A stretch of DNA of 64,000 nt from an uncultured Gammaproteobacteria bacterium. Lineage in GTDB: Bacteria > Patescibacteriota > Patescibacteriia > CAZSQN01. The number at the start of each line of letters is the position of its first letter. Position 1 is the first letter of the stretch. The translations under genes and the position numbers were made by a program. The stretch is taken from positions 88,066 through 152,065 of the forward strand of contig CAZSQN010000002.1 of NCBI GenBank assembly GCA_964609095.1, in the 5' to 3' direction. Below, one piece after another: positions 7,849 through 34,262 of the stretch. The notes beneath the pieces were generated by a model, which ran no database searches, was not told the DNA's origin, and saw only the letters and a list, made by a program, of their open reading frames with translations.

Positions 7849-7969
7849 CCCAGCACATAACTTCTAGTGTGAGATTTTCGCAAATAGCCGATTGTGGAAT
7901 GTATTTTATCAAAATATATTGCGACAATTTATAATTGCGCATTTTTTAATTTAAAAATTATGTGCGGGG
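7849..7969. promoter_or_regulatory. Motif-bracketed intergenic segment: degenerate CCCAGCACATAA (7849-7860) … TTATGTGCGGGG (7958-7969)
   Basis: Inverted copies of the recurrent 12-mer. Confidence 0.5.
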
Positions 7970-8572: not shown

Positions 8573-8856
8573 GGCGCGCTCTCCTCTTGCCGCCTGCTCC
8601 CGCTGCCAAAATCCAGCACCTGCCATTCGTAGTAGAGCGCGAGACGGCGCCTGTACCTCTTAATTTCTTCTTTGAGAATATAAATCGTCTCGCCGCAGAT
8701 GTGCTCCAAAACATCATCGGGATTCAAACTCATAAGCGGCGCCTTTAGCCACTCGCCAACTTCATGACTGTTTTGGTCAAGCAATCTGTGAATAATGACA
8801 TGGTCGGGATATTCGACCTTGACCCTTTCCACAAACTCGGCTGGATACTGCCTCAT
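8569..8856 (-). CDS. Hypothetical small protein (95 aa)
   Basis: An ORF with RBS aaaggagg upstream and a TTGACA-17-TTAAAT promoter; its stop overlaps the next start by 4 nt (ATGA). Confidence 0.55.
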   Translation of the reverse strand: MRQYPAEFVERVKVEYPDHVIIHRLLDQNSHEVGEWLKAPLMSLNPDDVLEHICGETIYILKEEIKRYRRRLALYYEWQVLDFGSGSRRQEESAP

Positions 8857-8945: not shown

Positions 8946-8974
8946 CCCCGCACATAACAGAATTATGCGTTGGG
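8946..8974. promoter_or_regulatory. Compact palindromic copy of the 12-mer: CCCCGCACATAA-cagaa-TTATGCGTTGGG
   Basis: Seen in sequence. Confidence 0.5.
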
Positions 8975-9391
8975 TCAAGCCCGATAATACGGACTCGCCC
9001 GCCTAAACTCTTCGTAGTCCTCTATATAATCTTCGCGGTTAGACGAATAGTTGGTGGAAGATAGCGCCAAAATCACGCAGTCGGATGAAGCGTCTTTGAA
9101 TCCGTGCCAGATAAAATTGGGAACATAAATCGCATCGCTGGGAGCTGACAATTTAATCTCCTCCAAACCCTTGCCGCGGTCAATCACAGCCGTCGCGCTT
9201 CCTTGCGCCAATATAAAAACTTCTTCTTCTATTTTATGGCAATGCTCGCCCGTTTTCCCGCCCGCCTCAAAATCGGTTATATAATAAACGCGTTTTACTT
9301 CAAACGGAATCAAATCTTTCAGTTCAATCGGCGTCAGCTTATAGCCACGACTGGGAAATGTCTTTAATTCAAATTTTCTAAATTCCTTCAT
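8975..9391 (-). CDS. fdtA: dTDP-4-keto-6-deoxyhexose 3,4-ketoisomerase (FdtA/QdtA/WxcM-like cupin)
   Basis: …GEHCHKIEEEVFILAQG…VPNFIWHGF…; a C-terminal DYIEDYEE-type tail. Confidence 0.75.
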   Translation of the reverse strand: MKEFRKFELKTFPSRGYKLTPIELKDLIPFEVKRVYYITDFEAGGKTGEHCHKIEEEVFILAQGSATAVIDRGKGLEEIKLSAPSDAIYVPNFIWHGFKDASSDCVILALSSTNYSSNREDYIEDYEEFRRASPYYRA

Positions 9392-9398
9392 TAAATTA

Positions 9399-9497
9399 TA
9401 ACGCGAATGATGCGAATCTTATGCCAATATCACGCGAATATGCGAATATGGTATTTGCGTATTTGCGGCATTCGCATTCATTCGCGAAATTTGCGTT
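9399..9497. repeat. Paired octamer-repeat blocks: (T/C)GCGAATA x4 direct, then ATTCGCR / TTTGCG inverted
   Basis: cgcgaatga tgcgaatct … cgcgaatatgcgaatatgg tatttgcg tatttgcg gcattcgc attcattcgcg aaatttgcg. Confidence 0.65.
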
Positions 9498-10515: not shown

Positions 10516-10610
10516 CCCCGCACATAATTTATTTAATAATTAGATAAACCGTGTTTTAATCTTTCTATTTTCCCGCACACTACTCATAATAAACAAATTT
10601 ATGTGCGGGG
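10516..10610. promoter_or_regulatory. Intergenic segment bracketed by CCCCGCACATAA (10516-10527) and TTATGTGCGGGG (10599-10610), with a third degenerate copy CCCGCACAC at 10572
   Basis: The left copy abuts the rmlB ATG; the right copy overlaps the HIT stop codon. Confidence 0.55.
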
Positions 10611-11012: not shown

Positions 11013-11047
11013 AATTTCAAATTTATGATTTCAAATTTCAAATTTAG
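11013..11047. repeat. Tandem heptamer (AATTTCA)x5
   Basis: aatttca aatttat gatttca aatttca aatttag, immediately upstream of the HIT start. Confidence 0.65.
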
Positions 11048-12781: not shown

Positions 12782-14396
12782 GCTCGTACAATCTCTCCGC
12801 CCCGAAGCTCATTGTTTCGCGAAGCGAAAATCCGGCCTGATTGTAATTTTTGATTCTTGGGTCGTCCTCATCAAGGCGCAGGGCGTACAAATAAAGCGGC
12901 CCGATTCTGCTTAAATCCTTTAACGAGCGGATGACCGCTTCCGAACCGGTGTCCGCGACCACGCGGCGATGCGGAAAAAAAATTTTATCCGACTTGTCGG
13001 TGATAATAACGGCGTTCTCCGGAGTCGCTCCTAACACGATTTTTCTGATTGCGCCGTAGCGTCGCAATTCGCGGGAAACATACGCCAGCCCTTCGCCGGC
13101 GCCGTAAAATACGGTTCTAAACGATAAAACCGCGCCGGCCAGAAGGGCAAAAATAAGAAAAAAATTGCGCCAGCCGCGGCGGTTTATTTTTTGCGCGACT
13201 AAATCAAGAAACCACGCGCCCAAAGGAATGCCGCCGATGTAAAGAGGCAGCCAATATCTTACGGTTGAAGTGCCGATAGTTATCATCCGCGGGTCAGGCG
13301 TGTCTAAAAAATAACCGCTGCCGTAAATCAAAACCAGCGGCGCGGAAATAACGAGAAGTATGGCCGAGAGGAGCCAAAGCCCTTCCGGAGCTTGTTTTGC
13401 AAGACGCCGGCGGAGCAAAACAACCGCGCCGGCCCCGGCCGCAAAGGCATACCACCAAAAAAATAATAGGCCGTATTGCCAAATATTTCTCGCGATATGG
13501 CGAAGCGAAAATCCAAACGGAAAAAGATTAAAGCTTCCGTAACCTGCCGGGAGCAAGCTGCCGTAGAAAAAACGCGAGACAAAAACCAAAATTATTACGG
13601 ATACAAGCGCGAAACAGCCATAAACAATCCAAGACGGCTTTGAAACATGTTTTCGGTATTTCCAAAGCAAAAATGCCGCGAGCGGCAAAAGCCAGATCGC
13701 CTCAAAAGTCCGCGTAAAAATCGCGGCGGCAAAAAAACCGGCTGCCAGCGCCGCGTCCATAATTTTTCCGATTGCCGGTCCGTCCTCGGCCCGCCGCGCC
13801 GCAAACGGGCGGACAACGGCGAAAAAAAGCGCGAGAATTAAAAAATCAAGAAAAACAACGTTATGAAACAATCCTCTATTGGCGTAATACCAAAGAGCGG
13901 GATGCGTGAGGGCCAAAAGGACGGACAGCATAGCCACTCTCCGGCTGACGATTTTTTGAAGCAATCTGCCAAAAGCAATAAGAGCAGCGGCCGTAAAAAA
14001 AGGCGTGAGAAACGGCGCCGCGCGCGCTCCGATAAGCGCGGCCGGGAGCGCGTAAATAAAAATCATGCCGATAAAACTGCCGGGCACAAGCAAACCGCCG
14101 GAGACGGAAACGGAACGCGGGTGTATTAATCCGCCGGACCAGACGACGGCCGGGTCAAAAAATGCCAGCCCTTGGCCTTGGGCAAGGCGGCTGATAAAAA
14201 AAGCATTGGCCGTCTCATCCGGCGAGTTCCATATATCCGACGGAGCAAAAACAGCCAAAAAAGAATAAAGCGCGAACGCGCTCAAAAAAATTAAAAATTG
14301 AAAATTGCGCACCCGAGGCGCATCCGCCTTGGGCGGAAAAATTGAAAATTTTATTTTATGTTCCATGTGAAGCAAGCGAGAGAAGGGCGAAAACAA
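12768..14396 (-). CDS. GT-C-fold membrane glycosyltransferase (ArnT/PMT, GT39/GT83-like)
   Basis: Polytopic membrane protein; a DE motif in the first loop (SPDETANAFFISRLAQG); start possibly at MEHKIKF (14366). Confidence 0.65.
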   Translation of the reverse strand: MFSPFSRLLHMEHKIKFSIFPPKADAPRVRNFQFLIFLSAFALYSFLAVFAPSDIWNSPDETANAFFISRLAQGQGLAFFDPAVVWSGGLIHPRSVSVSGGLLVPGSFIGMIFIYALPAALIGARAAPFLTPFFTAAALIAFGRLLQKIVSRRVAMLSVLLALTHPALWYYANRGLFHNVVFLDFLILALFFAVVRPFAARRAEDGPAIGKIMDAALAAGFFAAAIFTRTFEAIWLLPLAAFLLWKYRKHVSKPSWIVYGCFALVSVIILVFVSRFFYGSLLPAGYGSFNLFPFGFSLRHIARNIWQYGLLFFWWYAFAAGAGAVVLLRRRLAKQAPEGLWLLSAILLVISAPLVLIYGSGYFLDTPDPRMITIGTSTVRYWLPLYIGGIPLGAWFLDLVAQKINRRGWRNFFLIFALLAGAVLSFRTVFYGAGEGLAYVSRELRRYGAIRKIVLGATPENAVIITDKSDKIFFPHRRVVADTGSEAVIRSLKDLSRIGPLYLYALRLDEDDPRIKNYNQAGFSLRETMSFGAERLYELAPK

Positions 14397-14928
14397 TGGC
14401 TAAAGCAAAAGTGGCAAAAGAAACATTCATAAAAAACTGAACATCGCCCCACAAGGCAAGGAGCAGCATGCTCACTCCCATCACTTCAAAAAGCATTTTG
14501 ATTTTCCCCCAGACATTGGCCGGCTGGATTATGCCTTTCTTCATGCGGAAATAACCGGCGATAATGAAAACGGACTCCAGAGCGATAATGGATAATCCAA
14601 GCCAAAAATTAATATGTTCAAAGACCACCAAAAATACCAATCCGCCGATTAAAATTTTGTCAGCCAGCGGATCGTAAACCGTGCCCCACCTCGTCACCTG
14701 CCCCCTTACGCGCGCGAGCGAGCCGTCCAGAGCGTCGGTGGCGGCGGTAAAAAGAAATACGGGCACGCCCCACCCGTAATTGCCGCTTCCGATTAAAGCA
14801 AAGACAAAAGGAGTAAGCAAAAAACGCAAAACGGTAATATGATTGGGATGAACCGTCCACGGAATCAACCGCAAAATTGTGGCGGCTAAAACCTTATCAT
14901 GAAAATACGGTTTATTGGGATCACGCAT
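14356..14928 (-). CDS. CDP-alcohol phosphatidyltransferase family protein
   Basis: TDALDGSLARVRGQVTRWGTVYDPLADK matches D-x2-DG-x2-AR…G-x3-D-x3-D. Confidence 0.8.
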   Translation of the reverse strand: MRDPNKPYFHDKVLAATILRLIPWTVHPNHITVLRFLLTPFVFALIGSGNYGWGVPVFLFTAATDALDGSLARVRGQVTRWGTVYDPLADKILIGGLVFLVVFEHINFWLGLSIIALESVFIIAGYFRMKKGIIQPANVWGKIKMLFEVMGVSMLLLALWGDVQFFMNVSFATFALAIVFALLSLASHGT

Positions 14929-14933
14929 AAATT

Positions 14934-15011
14934 TGAGCTGTTAGCTCTTAGCTTTTAGCTGTTAGAAGATTTTTATTTGCCTCTAAAAGCTATAAGCTAT
15001 AAGCTAAAAGC
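14934..15011. repeat. Paired heptamer blocks in a divergent promoter region: (GCTNTTA)x4 – spacer – (TAWAAGC)x4
   Basis: gctgtta gctctta gctttta gctgtta … taaaagc tataagc tataagc taaaagc; the blocks are mutual reverse complements. Confidence 0.75.
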
Positions 15012-15018
15012 AACTACT

Positions 15019-17181
15019 ATGCGTCTTCTTGCCAAATTAGGACTGCCTCTCCTCGCCGTCATGACGGTGATTATAGCCAATCTGCTCTTTTGGCATCAGG
15101 CGGCTATTGGCATTCCTTTTCTTGCCGGCTATGCCCTTATAATCGGTTTTTCCCTGGGCCGCAAACTTTTTCCGCGCGACGGCGCCGGAACGCAGACATT
15201 TTTAGGCGTTCTTCTGCTTATAGCCGTTTGGTCTGTTTTGGGCGCGCTTATTTTTTATTTCGGCAAATTCGGCGTTGGGGAGATAATTTTGACGCTTGCC
15301 CTACCGGCTCTGCTTTTGCCCGGCGCCAAGAGCGAACCGCGGATAAATCCGTTTCCGCCTTCCAAAATGTCTCTTCTGACTTTGTCCGCCGGCGCGGGCT
15401 TTCTCCTTTTGGAATTCGCTTCTTTTTTTATTTTAGCCAGATCGGCGACAAGCGCGGCTTTGCGCTCGCCTTGGGAGCGCGTCCCGCCGGAATTCTTTCT
15501 TATTTTTTTCCTCGCTTCGCTGGCTCTCCTGATTTTGTGTTCAGAACACCGTTTGGGGCTTGGCCGCGTCGTCCTTATCAGCGCGCACACCGCGCTTATC
15601 GCCTCCGTCGCCTTGATTGTTTTTGAAATCGGGTTTGGCTTTGACCCTTTTATTCATCGCGCCACTGAAAACTATATTCTCGGCCACGGAACAATCACCC
15701 CCAAACATTTATATTATGCCGGCGAATACGGCTTAATCGTCTTTCTTTCCCGCGGTCTTGCCGTTCCCACGGACATATTAAACAAGCTGCTGGTTCCCAT
15801 GCTCGCGGCGGTCTCTCTTCCTTATCTTACTCTGTGGGCATTTTTTACGCGCCTGCGCGAACAAGCTTCCGTCAGAGTTCTGGCGCCGCTCGCGCCATTT
15901 TTCCTTTTGATTTTTCCCTTTTCCCCGTTTATCTCCACCACGCCGCAAAGTTTGGCCAACCTTTTTTTGTTCTTTGCCGTCCTTCTCGGGTTTAGCGGCA
16001 GCAGTAACAGCCGCGGTTTTGCCGTTCCGGCTATTGCCGTCTTTACCGTTGCTTCTCTGCTCGCCCACCCAATCGGCGGCATTCCCGCGGCTATCTTTCT
16101 CGCGCTTTTTTTGATTTCAAAAATCAAACGAGGACGGATTCGCTGGCCTCTTTTAATCGCGGCCGCGGTCAGCTCATCAGCGATTATCCCGCTTACTTTT
16201 ATGGCCCTAAACGCACTGGGCGGCTCCGGCGGAGAATTCGCGCCGGGTAAATCAAGTTTGGAGCATTTGTTTGAACTGATCCGCAAAAGCGTTGGCATTA
16301 TTCCGTTCCGTTATAATTTTTTTCTTGACATGACCTACCTTTACGGATGGAACAAAGGTTTGTGGCTTATTTTAGCCGCTTTTGCCGGTTATCTGATGCT
16401 CAAAAGAAAATCCAAAGAAGCGTCAAACGCCCCTTTTATTCTCGCCTCTTTTGCCGTTTTCGTCAATTCAATCCTGACAGCTTCCATTATCTCTTTTCCG
16501 GCGCTTCCGGATTATGAACAAGCCGTCTACAGCAGCCGATTAGCCGAGATTTCTGTCCTTCTGCTGCTTCCTTTGGCCATTTCAGGAGCGCTCTGGTTTT
16601 ACAATCGCGCCAGAGAACAAAGGCACACGTTTGTGTTTGCGTTTTTATTGTTCCCGGCGCTGATTACGGCCGCTCTTTATCTTGCTTATCCGCGCACGGA
16701 TAAATATGAATCCACGCACGGATACAATACCTCTATTGCAGATATTCACGCTGTGGAGGAAATAGAAAAAGACGCCTGCGAAGCAGCCCCGTCATCAACT
16801 CCGAGGTCGCTCAGACTCGAGGAGAGCAAAGTCGAGGGGTGTCCAAAATATATTGTCTTATCCAACCAAGCCGTTGGCGCGGCCGCGCTCCAAGAATTTG
16901 GATTTATAAATTTTTATGAGACCCCTAAAGGAAAAATATACTTTTATTCCGTGCCAACCGGCGGGCCGCTTTATCCGTATTATTTAAAAATGGTCTATGA
17001 AGCGCCTTCGCGCGAGATTATGAAAGAAGCAATGAACTTAGCCGGCGTAAAACTTGGCTACATCGCCATCAACCACTATTGGACCAACGCCCGCGCCTTA
17101 ACAGAAAAATTATCAGAAATCGCGGATAAAGAAATCGTGGTGGACGGAGGAAGGGTTTATGTTTATAGGTTTAGGAAATAA
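15019..17181 (+). CDS. Large polytopic membrane protein with a C-terminal soluble domain (GT-C-like architecture; function unknown)
   Basis: About 14 predicted TM helices then a ~200-aa soluble tail; the ORF-track start 14977 reads through the repeat block, so the MRLLAKLG start at 15019 is preferred. Confidence 0.6.
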   Translation: MRLLAKLGLPLLAVMTVIIANLLFWHQAAIGIPFLAGYALIIGFSLGRKLFPRDGAGTQTFLGVLLLIAVWSVLGALIFYFGKFGVGEIILTLALPALLLPGAKSEPRINPFPPSKMSLLTLSAGAGFLLLEFASFFILARSATSAALRSPWERVPPEFFLIFFLASLALLILCSEHRLGLGRVVLISAHTALIASVALIVFEIGFGFDPFIHRATENYILGHGTITPKHLYYAGEYGLIVFLSRGLAVPTDILNKLLVPMLAAVSLPYLTLWAFFTRLREQASVRVLAPLAPFFLLIFPFSPFISTTPQSLANLFLFFAVLLGFSGSSNSRGFAVPAIAVFTVASLLAHPIGGIPAAIFLALFLISKIKRGRIRWPLLIAAAVSSSAIIPLTFMALNALGGSGGEFAPGKSSLEHLFELIRKSVGIIPFRYNFFLDMTYLYGWNKGLWLILAAFAGYLMLKRKSKEASNAPFILASFAVFVNSILTASIISFPALPDYEQAVYSSRLAEISVLLLLPLAISGALWFYNRAREQRHTFVFAFLLFPALITAALYLAYPRTDKYESTHGYNTSIADIHAVEEIEKDACEAAPSSTPRSLRLEESKVEGCPKYIVLSNQAVGAAALQEFGFINFYETPKGKIYFYSVPTGGPLYPYYLKMVYEAPSREIMKEAMNLAGVKLGYIAINHYWTNARALTEKLSEIADKEIVVDGGRVYVYRFRK

Positions 17182-19180: not shown

Positions 19181-19252
19181 ATTAAAAAACGCCCGCTATC
19201 GCACGCAAAATATTGCTAATAACAATTTTAAGCTATAGCTGATTTTTGTTAT
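19181..19252. repeat. 72-bp perfect direct repeat, copy 1
   Basis: attaaaaaacgcccgctatcgcacgcaaaatattgctaataacaattttaagctatagctgatttttgttat; identical to 19908-19979. Confidence 0.9.
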
Positions 19253-19280
19253 TATATTTTTATAATCTCAAACTTAAATA

Positions 19281-19907: not shown

Positions 19908-19979
19908 ATTAAAAAACGCCCGCTATCGCACGCAAAATATTGCTAATAACAATTTTAAGCTATAGCTGATTTTTGTTAT
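19908..19979. repeat. 72-bp perfect direct repeat, copy 2
   Basis: Identical to 19181-19252. Confidence 0.9.
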
Positions 19980-19985
19980 CTTAAA

Positions 19986-20010
19986 TAAAAAACCTCCGCG
20001 TTAGCGAAGG
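19986..20010 (-). terminator. Terminator of the lytic-transglycosylase gene (hairpin with a G·U pair, then U6)
   Basis: Minus-strand reading: ccttcgc-taac-gcggagg-tttttt. Confidence 0.45.
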
Positions 20011-23105: not shown

Positions 23106-24239
23106 CTATAAAATAATTTTATTCCATATCTGTGCTATTCGCGGCAGGGCATAATGCTCCCGCGCTCTTTCTAACGCAGCCCTTCCCATTTCCGCGTCCG
23201 CTTCTTTGGAAAAAAATTCTTCAAACTTGCGCGCCAAAGCTGATATGTTTCCGGCGGGAACCAAAAAACCCGTTTCGTTATTTTTTATAACGGTTCTCAC
23301 GCCCGGCAAATCCGTCGCGATCGCCGCCAGCCCCGAAGCGGCCGCTTCCAAAAGTACGATGCCAAAGGCCTCCGAGCTGTCTATTGACGGAAGAACAAAC
23401 AAGTCCGCCAGATTATAGTACTTTGGCAAATCCGCTTCGCTTGCGGAACCGACGAAAATAGTTCTGGAGTCAATACCTAATTCTTTGGCGAGTTTTTCAT
23501 AAAACGGACGCAGATTGCCGTCGCCGACTATTAACAGGGTATAGGGTAGAGGGTGGAGGGTGGAGGAAAATTTTTTAAATGCATCAATCAAAACAGGAAC
23601 ACCTTTAAAATAGTGGGCACTGTCTAAGCCCCCGACAAAAAGAATGACTTTTTCTTCAGATGAGATTTTTAATCTTGCCGCAAACTCCGCATCACGCGGG
23701 CGCGGAGCAAACCTCTCCGTGTCCACACCAAGAGGAATTTCTATAAATTTATCCGATTGCGCCGCAACCAAGCCCCGAAGCGCGCCGGAATAGGCATAAT
23801 CAAGCGAAGTGACAATAACTTTGCCGGCACGGCCGAGGATTAAAGGCATTAGATATTTTTGGTGCCAGCGAAAAATTCTTCCCAGCAGTCCCTTGCCGCG
23901 CACATCCATATGATAAAAAATAATCAGCCTGGCTTTTGGCCTCATGAACAAAAAAAATTCCGCGGCGCCGAAAAAAGGATAATGCAAAATAACGGCGTCA
24001 AAGCCGCGAATTTTCCATAAAATCTGCGGAACTATGGCCGCGTTTCCATATTTTAAGACCGGCCTTAACCGTGTCAGCCGGTATTTTCCGGAACTTAAAC
24101 CATCCGCTCGGCTGTATAACGGCGAAAAGACCTCTACTTCGTGTCCGGCTTTGGCAAATGCTTCTGCCTGCTCTTTTGCCACCATTCCTATTCCTCCCTT
24201 ATACGGCGGAAAAACCGGCGTCACTATGGCAATTTTCAT
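23106..24239 (-). CDS. Glycosyltransferase family 4
   Basis: MKIAIVTPVFPPYKGGIGMV…; C-terminal EAAASGLAAIATDLPGVRTVIKNNETGFLV; ORF-track GTG 24248 ('MRGM') lies in the 12-mer and the real ATG is at 24239; contains a heptamer tract at 23530-23560. Confidence 0.85.
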   Translation of the reverse strand: MKIAIVTPVFPPYKGGIGMVAKEQAEAFAKAGHEVEVFSPLYSRADGLSSGKYRLTRLRPVLKYGNAAIVPQILWKIRGFDAVILHYPFFGAAEFFLFMRPKARLIIFYHMDVRGKGLLGRIFRWHQKYLMPLILGRAGKVIVTSLDYAYSGALRGLVAAQSDKFIEIPLGVDTERFAPRPRDAEFAARLKISSEEKVILFVGGLDSAHYFKGVPVLIDAFKKFSSTLHPLPYTLLIVGDGNLRPFYEKLAKELGIDSRTIFVGSASEADLPKYYNLADLFVLPSIDSSEAFGIVLLEAAASGLAAIATDLPGVRTVIKNNETGFLVPAGNISALARKFEEFFSKEADAEMGRAALERAREHYALPRIAQIWNKIIL

Positions 24240-24240
24240 A

Positions 24241-24376
24241 CCCCGCACATAATTTCGATATTAAAGTAATTTAGAAAATTTTTTGTTTTAATTTTAAACT
24301 CTATTTATCTATTTCACTGGTCTTAACTTGTTTCCCATCCCGTGAACGCGGGATGGAATCGAAGTTATGTGCGGGG
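24241..24376. promoter_or_regulatory. Intergenic segment bracketed by CCCCGCACATAA (24241-24252) and TTATGTGCGGGG (24365-24376); internal hairpin ccatcccg-tgaacg-cgggatgg (24333-24354)
   Basis: Seen in sequence. Confidence 0.55.
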
Positions 24377-25480: not shown

Positions 25481-25492
25481 GTTTTAGAAGCA

Positions 25493-25554
25493 AAAATTAA
25501 GAATCAAGAATTAAGAAAAAAGTTTACTTCTTAATTCCCACTTCTTGATTCTCG
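25493..25554. repeat. Paired heptamer blocks: ttaagaa tcaagaa ttaagaa … ttcttaa…ttcttga (exact reverse complements)
   Basis: Two alternative 10-bp stems, gaattaagaa/ttcttaattc and gaatcaagaa/ttcttgattc. Confidence 0.7.
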
Positions 25555-26533: not shown

Positions 26534-26598
26534 AAATTTCAGATTTCAAATTTAAAATTTAAAAAATAAATCTAAAATCTGAAATCACAAATCTGAAA
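26534..26598. repeat. Paired heptamer blocks: (ATTTCAR/ATTTAAA)x4 … (TCTRAAA)x4
   Basis: atttcag atttcaa atttaaa atttaaa aaataaa tctaaaa tctgaaa tcacaaa tctgaaa. Confidence 0.75.
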
Positions 26599-27612
26599 TT
26601 AGGCGATGCCCAACAATTCTTTATGCGCGAGGGTGTAATCAATGGATTGCTTTAACCCCTCATCAAGTTTAACAAGAGGAAACCATCCCAACGTCTCTTT
26701 GGCTTTGCTTAAATCCGGCAGCCCCAAAGGAGTCATAAAAAGAAGCGGGGGTTCAAAACGGATTTTTGAGGACGAACCGGTCATCTGGATTATTTTTGCC
26801 GCCACATCAGCCAATTTCCACTCCTCGTCATTGCCCAAATTAACCGGCCCGATCCCGGAAGGCGCGCTCATAAGTTTGATAAGCCCGTCCACAATATCAG
26901 AAACATAAACAAGAGACGTCTTAAAATTGTCATCACCATAGATTACAAGGTCCCTGCCTTCCAGCGCGTCAACGATAAAATCCGGCACCATTTCGCCGTC
27001 AAAAAGGCGCTGGCGCGGCCCATAAGTGCGGAAAATACGGGCGATCTTTACATCCAGTTTATGCACCTGCTCGTAAGTGGCGCAGATTGTTTCCGCAAAT
27101 CTTTTTCCCTCGTCATAGCAAGCTCGGGGCGAAAGCTGGTCTATAGCGCCCAAATCCGTTTCCTTAAATTTTTCTTTATCCGGCCGCCGCGGCCCGTAAA
27201 CCACGGAGGTGGAAGCGTGCACGACTTTGGCTTTGTATTTAACTCCCAATTCAGCCGCATTTTTGGCAGCGGCGGAATTGGACTCCAGTGTCTGCAGTTT
27301 AAACTGGTCAAAATTTTTCGCGCTGGTGGGACAGGCGAGATGATAAATTTCCTGAATACCCTGAAATTTAACCTTGAATCTGTCCAGCTCTTTAAAACTT
27401 TCCAGCTCCAGCGGCTTGGTCATGTCGTGCCTTAAAAATTCAAAATCAGGCAATTGCAAAAGGCGGTCAATATTCCGTTCATTAGAATTGATAAAACTGT
27501 CAACGCAGATAACATGGCTGTCTTTGAGCAGCCGCTCGCACAAATGCGAGCCGATAAAGCCGGCCCCTCCGGTTACCAGCACGTTTTTTTTCTCAAAAGT
27601 TAGTTCGGCCAT
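26599..27612 (-). CDS. NAD-dependent epimerase/dehydratase (UDP-glucuronate decarboxylase-like SDR)
   Basis: VLVTGGAGFIGSHLCERLL…YHLACPTS…ASTSVVYG…. Confidence 0.75.
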   Translation of the reverse strand: MAELTFEKKNVLVTGGAGFIGSHLCERLLKDSHVICVDSFINSNERNIDRLLQLPDFEFLRHDMTKPLELESFKELDRFKVKFQGIQEIYHLACPTSAKNFDQFKLQTLESNSAAAKNAAELGVKYKAKVVHASTSVVYGPRRPDKEKFKETDLGAIDQLSPRACYDEGKRFAETICATYEQVHKLDVKIARIFRTYGPRQRLFDGEMVPDFIVDALEGRDLVIYGDDNFKTSLVYVSDIVDGLIKLMSAPSGIGPVNLGNDEEWKLADVAAKIIQMTGSSSKIRFEPPLLFMTPLGLPDLSKAKETLGWFPLVKLDEGLKQSIDYTLAHKELLGIA

Positions 27613-27618
27613 ATTTTT

Positions 27619-27723
27619 AAGAGATAAGAGATAAGAGATAAGAGTTAAGAGTTAAAAATTTAGAAAGCTCTCTCAACTTTCAACTTTTAACTTTCAGCTT
27701 ACAGCTTACAGCTTTATCTTTAT
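27619..27723. repeat. Paired heptamer blocks: (AGAGATA)x3(AGAGTTA)x2 … (AACTTTC)x3(AGCTTAC)x3
   Basis: Seen directly; the second block ends at the subtilase stop codon. Confidence 0.8.
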
Positions 27724-30786: not shown

Positions 30787-30906
30787 CCCCGCACATAATT
30801 TATTTAATACTAAATAGTCAAACAACCTATATTTTAATTGTTATTTTTAACATGTCTTAATTCTTTAATCAAATAAACATGAAATATAAACAAATTATGT
30901 GCGGGG
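30787..30906. promoter_or_regulatory. Divergent intergenic segment bracketed by CCCCGCACATAA (30787-30798) and TTATGTGCGGGG (30895-30906)
   Basis: The 27 bp CATACCCCGCACATAATTTATTTAATA is identical to the sequence upstream of rmlB (10511-10537). Confidence 0.55.
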
Positions 30907-33334: not shown

Positions 33335-33398
33335 TTAGCGTTTAGCGATTAGCGTATAGCGTTTAGTTTCCTAAACCCTAAACGCTAAACCCTACACC
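33335..33398. repeat. Paired heptamer blocks: (TAGCGNT)x4 … (CTAAACN)x4
   Basis: tagcgtt tagcgat tagcgta tagcgtt … ctaaacc ctaaacg ctaaacc ctacacc; the second block overlaps the last codons of the dehydrogenase ORF. Confidence 0.75.
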
Positions 33399-34262
33399 CT
33401 CGCCGTGAAACGGCGCCAGAGGCGGCGCGTATGACTTATTGTCCGTTGTCTGAGGCCGTGCTGGCGCGCCGGGCGCTATGGCTTCTTTGGCGCGCAGTTT
33501 GTTGTTAATCTCTTCCGCTTTTTTAAGCAAATCCATTTGCACGCCGATACTCTCTCCGTATTGGATCAAAGCGCGCGTGTCTTTGGGCAAGCACGCTCCG
33601 CCGTAGCCGCGATAGCCGCCGTGAAATATTTCCAAATGCGACGGCCCGATGCGCTTATCCGCCGCCACGCATTCCTTAACAATATTATAGTCAACTCCGG
33701 CGCCAACGCAGAGATCGTACATCTGATTGGCAAACACCACTTTGGCGGAAAACCAGGTGTTGCCAAAATACTTAATCATTTCCGCTTCTTTTGCGGGCAC
33801 AACGCGTTCAAACGGAGCAAGCGGCAAAATCGCGATTAGCGTCCCGGCCGCGTTATAACTTTTGGCGGTATAGCCGACTATCTGCCTGTCGGGAAAAGAC
33901 ATATCGTTATCAGCGGATGACTGAGTCAAAAATTCCGGATTGAACAAAAATTTATGCTGCGGAAATTCTTCCTGTAAGACATCGGTTGTCCCGGGAAGAA
34001 CCGTTGATTTTATAACGACTATTTTTTCTCCGGTTAACGCGCCAATTGCCGCCTTTACGTACGAAAGGTCAAAACCGCCGTTAGCCTCGTCATAAGGGGT
34101 GGGCACGCATATAAAAACAATATCGGCTCTGTTTACTTCTTCTAACGAGCCCTCATTTTTATATTTATCAAAACAAAAGGGCTGGACTCCCCGTTTTTCA
34201 AAATATCGTTTAATCGCTCCGCCGACCATGCCGGCGGAACCCACGATGCCTATCAATGCCAT
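33378..34262 (-). CDS. UDP-glucose/GDP-mannose dehydrogenase family protein, short form lacking the C-terminal UDP-binding domain
   Basis: N-terminal Rossmann GIVGSAGMVGG; catalytic GGACLPKD; only 294 aa; the C-terminal ~30 aa are low-complexity and run into the repeat block. Confidence 0.65.
   Translation of the reverse strand: MALIGIVGSAGMVGGAIKRYFEKRGVQPFCFDKYKNEGSLEEVNRADIVFICVPTPYDEANGGFDLSYVKAAIGALTGEKIVVIKSTVLPGTTDVLQEEFPQHKFLFNPEFLTQSSADNDMSFPDRQIVGYTAKSYNAAGTLIAILPLAPFERVVPAKEAEMIKYFGNTWFSAKVVFANQMYDLCVGAGVDYNIVKECVAADKRIGPSHLEIFHGGYRGYGGACLPKDTRALIQYGESIGVQMDLLKKAEEINNKLRAKEAIAPGAPARPQTTDNKSYAPPLAPFHGEGVGFSV

Follow-up and report, generated by a model that had tools for sequence, protein, structure and literature searches.

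The window analysed here, a stretch of 64,000 nt of DNA, carries between two divergently oriented genes a spacer that is almost completely taken up by a single imperfect palindrome made of heptamers. In the initial annotation this palindrome was considered a candidate common operator of the two genes, and the locus raises the question of what such an element is: a regulatory site shared by its neighbours, a selected hairpin, debris, or something that owes its symmetry to the way in which it arose. The DNA belongs to Candidatus Uhrbacteria and is found on contig JACOZF010000008.1 of assembly GCA_016181485.1, in which the spacer occupies about 80,119-80,208. The features of the locus are given by position in the window.

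14356-14928, minus strand: CDP-alcohol phosphatidyltransferase gene, 190 aa (PF01066, E=3e-29)
14937-14966, minus strand: left arm of the palindrome, evolutionarily labile (inverted-repeat search, TRF, ortholog comparison)
14967-14981, no strand: AT-rich spacer (loop) of 15 nt separating the arms (sequence, inverted-repeat search, fold)
14974-15011, plus strand: conserved block ATTTGC[C/G]TCTA[A/T]AAGCTATAAGCTATAAGCTAAAAGC (35/38 columns invariant, three species)
14977-15005, plus strand: weak sigma-70-like candidate promoter from a relaxed scan, TTGCCT (14977-14982), 17-nt spacer, TAAGCT (15000-15005)
14977-15018, plus strand: spurious N-terminal extension MPLKAISYKLKATT, 14 residues, from an in-frame TTG
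14982-15011, plus strand: right arm of the palindrome, conserved, ending 7 nt short of the membrane-protein start codon
15019-17181, plus strand: polytopic membrane-protein gene, 720 aa, of an uncharacterised Patescibacteria family (78 homologs)

The spacer of 90 nt (14929-15018) between the CDP-alcohol phosphatidyltransferase gene and the membrane-protein gene begins with AAATTTGA, continues with GCTGTTA GCTCTTA GCTTTTA GCTGTTA GA and AGATTTTTATTTGCC, and ends with TC TAAAAGC TATAAGC TATAAGC TAAAAGC and AACTACT, followed by the ATG at 15019. An inverted-repeat search returned two arms of 30 nt each (14937-14966 and 14982-15011), 83% complementary and 15 nt apart, each made of four GCTNTTA/TANAAGC heptamers, so that 75 of the 90 intergenic bases are occupied by the element. 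TRF assigns period 7 to both arms (4.3 and 4.1 copies, 86-90% matches), and each holds the at least three head-to-tail copies of a 7-nt unit that define a heptanucleotide array. The palindrome of GCTNTTA heptamers first described between these divergent genes is thus real, and its 15-nt spacer is correct if the additional GA/TC pairs are counted in the arms; the heptamer blocks proper, of 28 nt, lie 19 nt apart. In the sense of the phosphatidyltransferase gene the left arm reads TC TAACAGC TAAAAGC TAAGAGC TAACAGC, and 8 nt separate its end from the start codon of that gene. All five mismatches of the stem fall exactly at the single variable position of each heptamer. The double-heptamer pattern GCTNTTAGCTNTTA, with one mismatch at most, has five matches in the window, all within the element, where 0.40 would be expected. 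Folded as RNA, the plus strand of the 90-nt spacer forms one long hairpin (-29.8 kcal/mol, z -3.3) and the minus strand reaches -32.2 kcal/mol (z -4.4); the single-stranded DNA fold amounts to -17.0 kcal/mol (z -2.6).

Searches for known elements gave little. Rfam produced no match at gathering score anywhere in the window, and at E<=1 only sub-threshold eukaryotic miRNA hairpin models that we regard as noise; a search against phage DNA also returned no match. An intrinsic terminator was rejected, as the element lies between two start codons and has an AT-rich 30-bp stem with no T-run; the sole match of a terminator scan at the element was a trivial 5-bp stem, and canonical terminators are present elsewhere in the window. 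The AGCT cores were likewise rejected as a restriction or methylation site, AGCT not being avoided in the window (ratio 0.96).

The CDP-alcohol phosphatidyltransferase gene is the first of a minus-strand envelope operon. Its nearest NCBIfam model is pgsA, under the cut-off of that model, and its orthologs in four related loci (L001, L002, L004 and L005) are all 190 aa long with a conserved ATGCGCGATCC start. The homologs of the membrane protein are all unnamed, and Pfam, NCBIfam and PDB contain no match to it. A metagenome scan using the single protein found no relatives, and an alignment-based scan found distant relatives only, plus one partial ortholog (L164). The ORF caller starts this gene at TTG 14977, which yields MPLKAISYKLKATTM... 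as N-terminus. The initial annotation had doubted this N-terminus and placed the true start at 15019 (MRLLAKLG), and in this it was right: the NCBI gene call HYT45_01820 has 720 aa, and in the six closest homologs (55-61% identity) the N-terminus reads MRLLAKLS or MPLRSKLS, lacks the extension and aligns with the M at 15019. Nor is the extension conserved in L005, where the frame 5' of the ATG is displaced by 2 nt and interrupted by a stop. The TTG start and the MPLKAISYKLKATT extension are artefacts that result from the frame staying open across the right arm, an example of how heptamer arrays at starts and stops mislead ORF callers. Many TPA MAG records (L006, L011, L013, L015, L016 and others) that carry the membrane-protein gene are titled 'uncultured Gammaproteobacteria bacterium'. 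Other named relatives of the gene belong nearly all to Patescibacteria/CPR, and some of the records that look mislabelled carry heptamer arrays; the Gammaproteobacteria labels on those TPA MAG records are probably wrong.

Seven orthologous spacers (window, L001-L005 and L164) were compared, and they fall into three types.

Type A (window, L005, L001): TAWAAGC array 5' of the membrane-protein gene
Type B (L002, L003): TTCTTRA-type arrays on both sides
Type C (L004, L164): TTTCATG/TTTAATG-type arrays on both sides

Heptamer periodicity is found 5' of both ATGs in all seven spacers and across the three unit types, and it thus persists despite replacement of the unit itself. The arms of type A have fared very differently. 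The right arm is identical in L005, differs at 1 position in L001, and consists of four imperfect units in all three species; in the alignment, positions 14974-15011 are invariant at 35 of 38 columns (92%; P ~3e-8 to 1e-5), against 41-53% in 120 nt of either neighbouring gene and 15-23% at the third positions of codons, between species whose membrane proteins are just 57-60% identical. Of the left arm, the window has 4 units and L005 has 2; L001 has no unit of it and carries a non-complementary ATAAATT array at this place. In the stretch 14929-14973, just 20% of the columns agree in all three species. Set against the third codon positions, the near-invariance of the right-arm block indicates strong purifying selection at the level of its sequence, and the block 14974-15011 appears to be the functional core of the region. 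Since the right arm is kept with 4, 2 or 0 units on the left, the palindrome is apparently not required for whatever the right arm does, and the conservation of the right arm supports a putative cis-regulatory role for this arm alone. At closer range the picture is more fluid. The proteins of L005 and L002 are 88% identical, and the array types at the locus differ; L002 and L003 (85% identical) show a 21-nt difference that is spread across both arms, which have changed together. As the inverted arrangement recurs in 6 of the 7 spacers across three unit types, and given this joint change, the symmetry of the palindrome may itself be selected. A single locus thus displays long-term conservation, gain and loss of whole units, concerted unit change and complete replacement.

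What the right arm contributes may be guessed from the signals near it. A consensus promoter scan found no site above threshold in the spacer or within about 600 nt, and a relaxed scan gave weak candidates only, with nothing consistent or convincing for the phosphatidyltransferase gene. The best-scoring pair 5' of the membrane-protein gene is TTGCCT-17-TAAGCT, with TTGCGT-17-TAAGCT at the same place in L005 and L001; its candidate -10 matches at 3 of 6 positions, and its predicted start near 15012 would leave a leader of 6-7 nt, at the point where conservation ends. We infer that the right arm is probably the promoter or short leader of the membrane-protein gene. The entire 17-nt 'spacer' of this candidate promoter is invariant across type A, beyond the needs of a promoter alone, which hints at an extra constraint such as an additional binding partner.

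Some genes of the window have canonical TTGACA-17-TTTAAT promoters with AGGAGG ribosome sites. Canonical promoters that end 9-11 nt from the ATG, and hence imply very short leaders, are found at the window gene starting at 8626 and in L002 and L003 (TTGATT-17-TAAGAT or TAAAAT). Among the 1,594 first-ATG ORFs with 150 codons or more in the window and the fetched loci, only about 10% are preceded by a Shine-Dalgarno-like motif, and the base at -1 of the ATG is T in 62% of the genes without such a motif, a general feature that is not specific to arrays. A small excess of TAnnnT ending at -7 in the same set hints at some leaderless genes. Start-proximal arrays as marks of leaderless promoters were rejected, there being no positional -10 signal 5' of 45 array-flanked ATGs.

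The two arms belong to a larger class. An autocorrelation scan of the window found 12 period-7 arrays, against 0.1 in locally shuffled sequence, and no arrays of period 6 or of periods 8-12; about 14 different units occur in these 64 kb. The other period-7 arrays located by TRF in the window, of about 4-6 copies and each with its own unit, are as follows.

2458-2530: period-7 array
11013-11045: period-7 array
14287-14307: period-7 array
23536-23566: period-7 array
25486-25517: period-7 array
26534-26599: period-7 array
27618-27715: period-7 array
33335-33400: period-7 array

Via the membrane-protein family, 165 related loci were fetched from Uhr-, Falkow-, Buchanan- and Komeilibacteria and from unnamed MAGs. 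Together with the window (2.06 Mb in all) they hold 269 period-7 arrays, while period 6 accounts for 57 and period 8 for 51, and a 50-kb E. coli control has no period-7 arrays. In this excess of period 7 over neighbouring periods, seen in the window as well as in the 2.06 Mb, the arrays resemble heptanucleotide SSR and STRR repeats. They do not share the restriction to one or a few units per genome found with STRR1-3, GGGAATC or TAACTGA: the 269 arrays comprise 114 canonical units, with 23% GC against a genome mean of 43%. No further copy of the focal unit is present in the window, and among the 165 loci only the orthologs L001 and L005 have it, the other 163 having none; a REP/BIME or MITE element, which requires dispersed copies of one sequence, was rejected on this ground.

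Array length is narrowly distributed. It peaks at 30-32 nt (about 4.4 units) with a sharp drop above 35 nt, whereas arrays of other periods decay monotonically, and the focal arms, at 29-30 nt, are typical of the class. The peak is equal in ORF-interior and intergenic arrays, and is also present in imperfect arrays and in both GenBank MAG and JGI assemblies. Collapse of de Bruijn graphs was rejected as its cause because k<=28 suffices to resolve all arrays of 27-35 nt; nor is this mode predicted by simple slippage. Most arrays are intergenic, with a density of 0.51 per kb between genes and 0.063 per kb within ORFs (8-fold). Arrays most often end 5-9 nt short of a downstream ATG (22 cases, with about 3 expected). 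Among 35 co-directional spacers the arrays adjoin stop codons in 14 and starts in 18, which weakens start-codon proximity as a proof of function, stop codons being adjoined about as often. This fits a picture of arrays as the main filler of otherwise very short spacers.

Pairs of contigs from the same strain with identical flanks carry identical arrays, with no copy-number polymorphism at the level of assemblies. Where the flanks are 74-90% identical, the length of orthologous arrays stays constant and all units change together, as in GGGTTTC versus GGATTTC (both 34 nt) and TTACTTC versus TTACTGG (both 31 nt, coding); clean differences in presence or absence of array sequence amount to +21 and +42 nt. 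The long perfect tract characteristic of phase variation is lacking at the focal locus, whose four imperfect units are held in three species. A Logan k=31 contig of the same strain (L168) is identical to the window over 8,195 nt and ends at window position 11016, inside a 33-nt heptamer array at the HIT junction; arrays of such size thus break k=31 assemblies.

Arrays also occur within genes. At 23534-23567 of the window, an intact GT4 glycosyltransferase gene contains CCTCCAC repeated 4.4 times; the array falls between the two domains of the enzyme and is translated as ...FSSTLHPLPYTLL... The intact 680-aa Falkowbacteria homolog of the membrane protein at 9785-11827 of L057 contains five in-frame arrays (similarly in L158, L084, L092 and L094-L096); their units, TTACTTC and TTACTCG, give rise to LLLTSYF and LLVTRYS repeats. 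Relative to its sister genome, L057 is 42 nt (14 aa) longer in one of these arrays; elsewhere the two have arrays of equal length built from different units. Downstream of the phosphatidyltransferase gene, a 532-aa membrane-protein gene starts at an ATG at 14366 that overlaps the upstream stop; in its first 30 codons (14285-14366), a segment that its orthologs do not have, two short AATTTTC/AATTTTT arrays flank a GC-rich hairpin.

An inverted partner lies near 32 arrays, compared with 6 in random pairings, i.e. for about 1 array in 8. There are 19 clear inverted pairs, of which eight lie between co-directional genes, four between divergent and four between convergent ones, one is intragenic, and two have an uncalled flanking gene. 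Several window arrays are inverted pairs that fill the spacers of co-directional envelope genes on the minus strand, the upstream stop being followed by arm, loop, second arm and the next start, and at 33378 the upstream stop codon falls within the distal arm. Four co-directional hairpins of the window have folding energies in mRNA sense and antisense of -30.7/-19.8, -19.0/-9.4, -25.3/-21.0 and -25.4/-18.6 kcal/mol, the better sense fold being due to G-U pairs. Over all loci, the bias towards the sense strand (6 of 8 pairs, mean -1 kcal/mol) is not significant and not above that of array-free spacers.

The explanation that we favour, to which we would give about an even chance, is that the focal palindrome consists of two start-proximal heptamer arrays, of which the right one was captured as cis-acting DNA and the left one is a dispensable inverted copy. 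There would be two separate arrays of about 30 nt, each abutting one of the two start codons (at 8 and 7 nt) and oriented alike towards its own gene, and the inverted repeat would be no more than a consequence of gene divergence and a shared unit. Arrays of this kind would be produced by tandem duplication of 7 nt, of a replication-slippage type, which acts on intergenic and coding DNA, accumulates at about 4.4 units and lets the units of one array evolve in concert; the inverted partner acquired by about one array in eight would stem from strand or template switching. Once captured by the membrane-protein gene, the right array would be kept near-unchanged by selection, probably as a core promoter with a very short leader devoid of a Shine-Dalgarno sequence (TTGCCT-17-TAAGCT, start near 15012), while the left array would go on gaining and losing whole units. 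The palindrome with its hairpin potential would then be a by-product, or at most a modulator. Of all this, the existence and statistics of the class, the pattern of conservation and the start codon are established; how the duplications arise, which promoter is used and whether the hairpin is a by-product are inferences.

It is tempting to go further, to an idea that we hold as tentative and rather doubtful, and to speculate that an undescribed mutational regime of Patescibacteria, whether intrinsic to polymerase or repair or a dedicated system, writes length-quantised heptamer arrays (mode 30-32 nt, about 4.4 units) into genes and intergenic DNA, and that these are then recruited by selection. 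Such a regime would homogenise units at constant array length and often add an inverted partner, and its products would be recruited as promoter or leader DNA (the right arm), as intercistronic hairpins and as 7-residue repeats of membrane proteins. If this were true, these ultra-small genomes would owe much of their regulatory and protein novelty to the arrays.

A structural role is a live but less likely rival to the favoured explanation. The inverted repeat itself would be selected, as a long imperfect RNA hairpin in a 5' UTR or read-through transcript that controls translation, stability or RNase III processing, or as a DNA cruciform or insulator between the two divergent promoters; we consider this unlikely on balance. 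The fold is significant on both strands, symmetry has survived unit turnover in six of seven orthologous spacers, both arms changed jointly between L002 and L003, and the four co-directional hairpins of the window fold better in mRNA sense. Against this, L001 has an intact right arm without a complementary left arm, and covariation is absent: the variable positions of the left arm change with the right arm fixed, and all five mismatches lie at those positions. The focal element moreover has no strand preference, the sense bias over all loci is weak and no greater than in array-free spacers, and co-transcription of the two arms needs a promoter inside the neighbouring gene, where the scan found none. 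A stem of 83% complementarity with a loop of 15 nt is a poor substrate for cruciform extrusion, which counts against the cruciform variant. At the other extreme, both arms could have arisen by slippage and template switching and have no function, being tolerated in the sole free DNA between the genes. The length mode and an origin independent of context would agree with this, as would the filling of short spacers next to stops and starts (14 and 18 of 35) and the lability of the left arm; the right-arm block does not, since it is 92% invariant in three species where third codon positions reach only 15-23%, and neutral DNA would be saturated at such divergence. That both arms are debris thus seems improbable to us.

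Just as improbable in our estimation is the common operator of the initial annotation, in which a sequence-specific regulator would bind the TTAGCT/AAGCTA heptads of both arms and co-regulate the two envelope genes. In its favour, each heptad varies at a single one of its seven positions, the sequence of the right arm is conserved, promoter 'spacer' included, and there is a precedent in the tandem TTTTGAT heptads of the ctxAB promoter, which are reported to be protein-binding sites (10.1101/2021.05.14.444153). Against it, the left half-site is dispensable (4, 2 or 0 units) next to a near-invariant right one, and close relatives exchange the unit entirely. The motif is confined to this locus and its orthologs L001 and L005, being absent from the rest of the 64 kb and from the 163 other loci; no gene for a regulator or a protein with a DNA-binding domain lies within 10 kb, and a site of 75 bp would be atypical. 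Inverted heptamer pairs, besides, occur alike between co-directional, convergent and divergent genes, and the class has its 114 units in all gene contexts. No sequence-specific regulator can explain 12 arrays in the window and 269 in the set with its relatives, spread over so many units. Co-regulation of this gene pair via a common operator should therefore not be assumed.

The arrays can be placed among known heptamer repeats, with which they share period, location and probably origin. According to the accounts of Mrazek, Guo & Shah (2007) given in PMC4692102 and PMC4679880, 7-nt units are the most abundant class of long SSRs in many bacteria, and polymerase slippage with a 7-nt footprint was proposed as their origin. 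The Mrazek SSRs and the STRR of Calothrix and Nostoc are, like the arrays studied here, tandem heptamers over-represented relative to other unit lengths and mostly intergenic; unlike them, the Patescibacteria arrays have nearly an AT-rich unit each (114 in 269), a copy number held tightly at about 4.4 rather than wide-ranging, and many members in frame inside genes. The GGGAATC arrays of Xanthomonas and GGGGAYT arrays of Nostoc are intergenic, are kept between the same genes in related species while varying in length and sequence, and include inverted pairs that can form stem-loops (Rehm et al. 2015, PMC4692102). Those of Patescibacteria are likewise intergenic and retained, some as inverted pairs, but in place of one G-rich, G-quadruplex-capable family per genome they are AT-rich and locus-variable, with no G4 potential. 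TAACTGA, found in marine Beggiatoaceae, Cyanobacteria and Bacteroidetes, lies in 2-6 copies directly 5' of start codons and is oriented with the gene; occasional copies within ORFs encode 7-residue repeats, and a role in translation was proposed (MacGregor 2015, PMC4679880). The Patescibacteria arrays are similarly start-proximal and sometimes within ORFs, with a locus-specific unit instead of a unit conserved genome-wide.

The TTTTGAT repeats at ctxAB of Vibrio cholerae and the 7-bp repeats 5' of hmw1A/hmw2A in Haemophilus influenzae affect expression and are, like the focal arm, tandem 7-bp units in promoter or leader DNA of a surface-related gene. Their copy number is reported to vary between strains and they act via ToxR/H-NS or phase variation, whereas the four imperfect focal units are fixed across species, with no copy-number polymorphism among same-strain contigs. 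As with REP/BIME elements, there are many imperfect intergenic hairpins per genome; REP families share one sequence, and the Patescibacteria hairpins share only their 7-nt periodicity and arm length. The arrays also differ from known heptamer repeats in their concerted unit change at constant length. No report of heptamer repeats in CPR/Patescibacteria was found in the literature. The origin and function of bacterial heptanucleotide repeats have been open since the cyanobacterial STRR were described; Patescibacteria, with hundreds of small, diverse arrays of similar size whose orthologous sites span a graded range of divergence, make it possible to test directly how such arrays arise by mutation and how they are captured for function.

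Several other sequence features of the window were noted. The palindromic tetramers TCGA (15 observed, ratio 0.13), CTAG (0.22) and GATC (0.35) are strongly avoided, which suggests restriction-modification pressure. The motif CCCGCACATAA is present in 9 copies where 1.4 would be expected (7850-7968, 10517-10609, 24242-24375 and 30788-30905, with a single copy at 8947). Most of them are paired in inverted orientation around an entire AT-rich spacer of about 80-130 nt between genes: one member of the pair overlaps or adjoins the upstream stop (the HIT protein ends ...PRT*), and the other adjoins the downstream start (TTATGTGCGGGG). They could be a second, GC-rich repeat family, a stop-start clamp or a MITE-like element. 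A direct repeat of 89 nt, 91% identical, lies at 19181-19269 and 19908-19996, 5' of two minus-strand genes, and each of its copies adjoins a canonical TTGAC.-17-TTTAAT promoter and an AGGAGG-type ribosome site. At 9434-9467, 5' of a gene starting near 9391, two adjacent tandem repeats of 8 nt (GCGAATAT and GTATTTGC, two copies of each) resemble an 8-mer analogue of the heptamer arrays.
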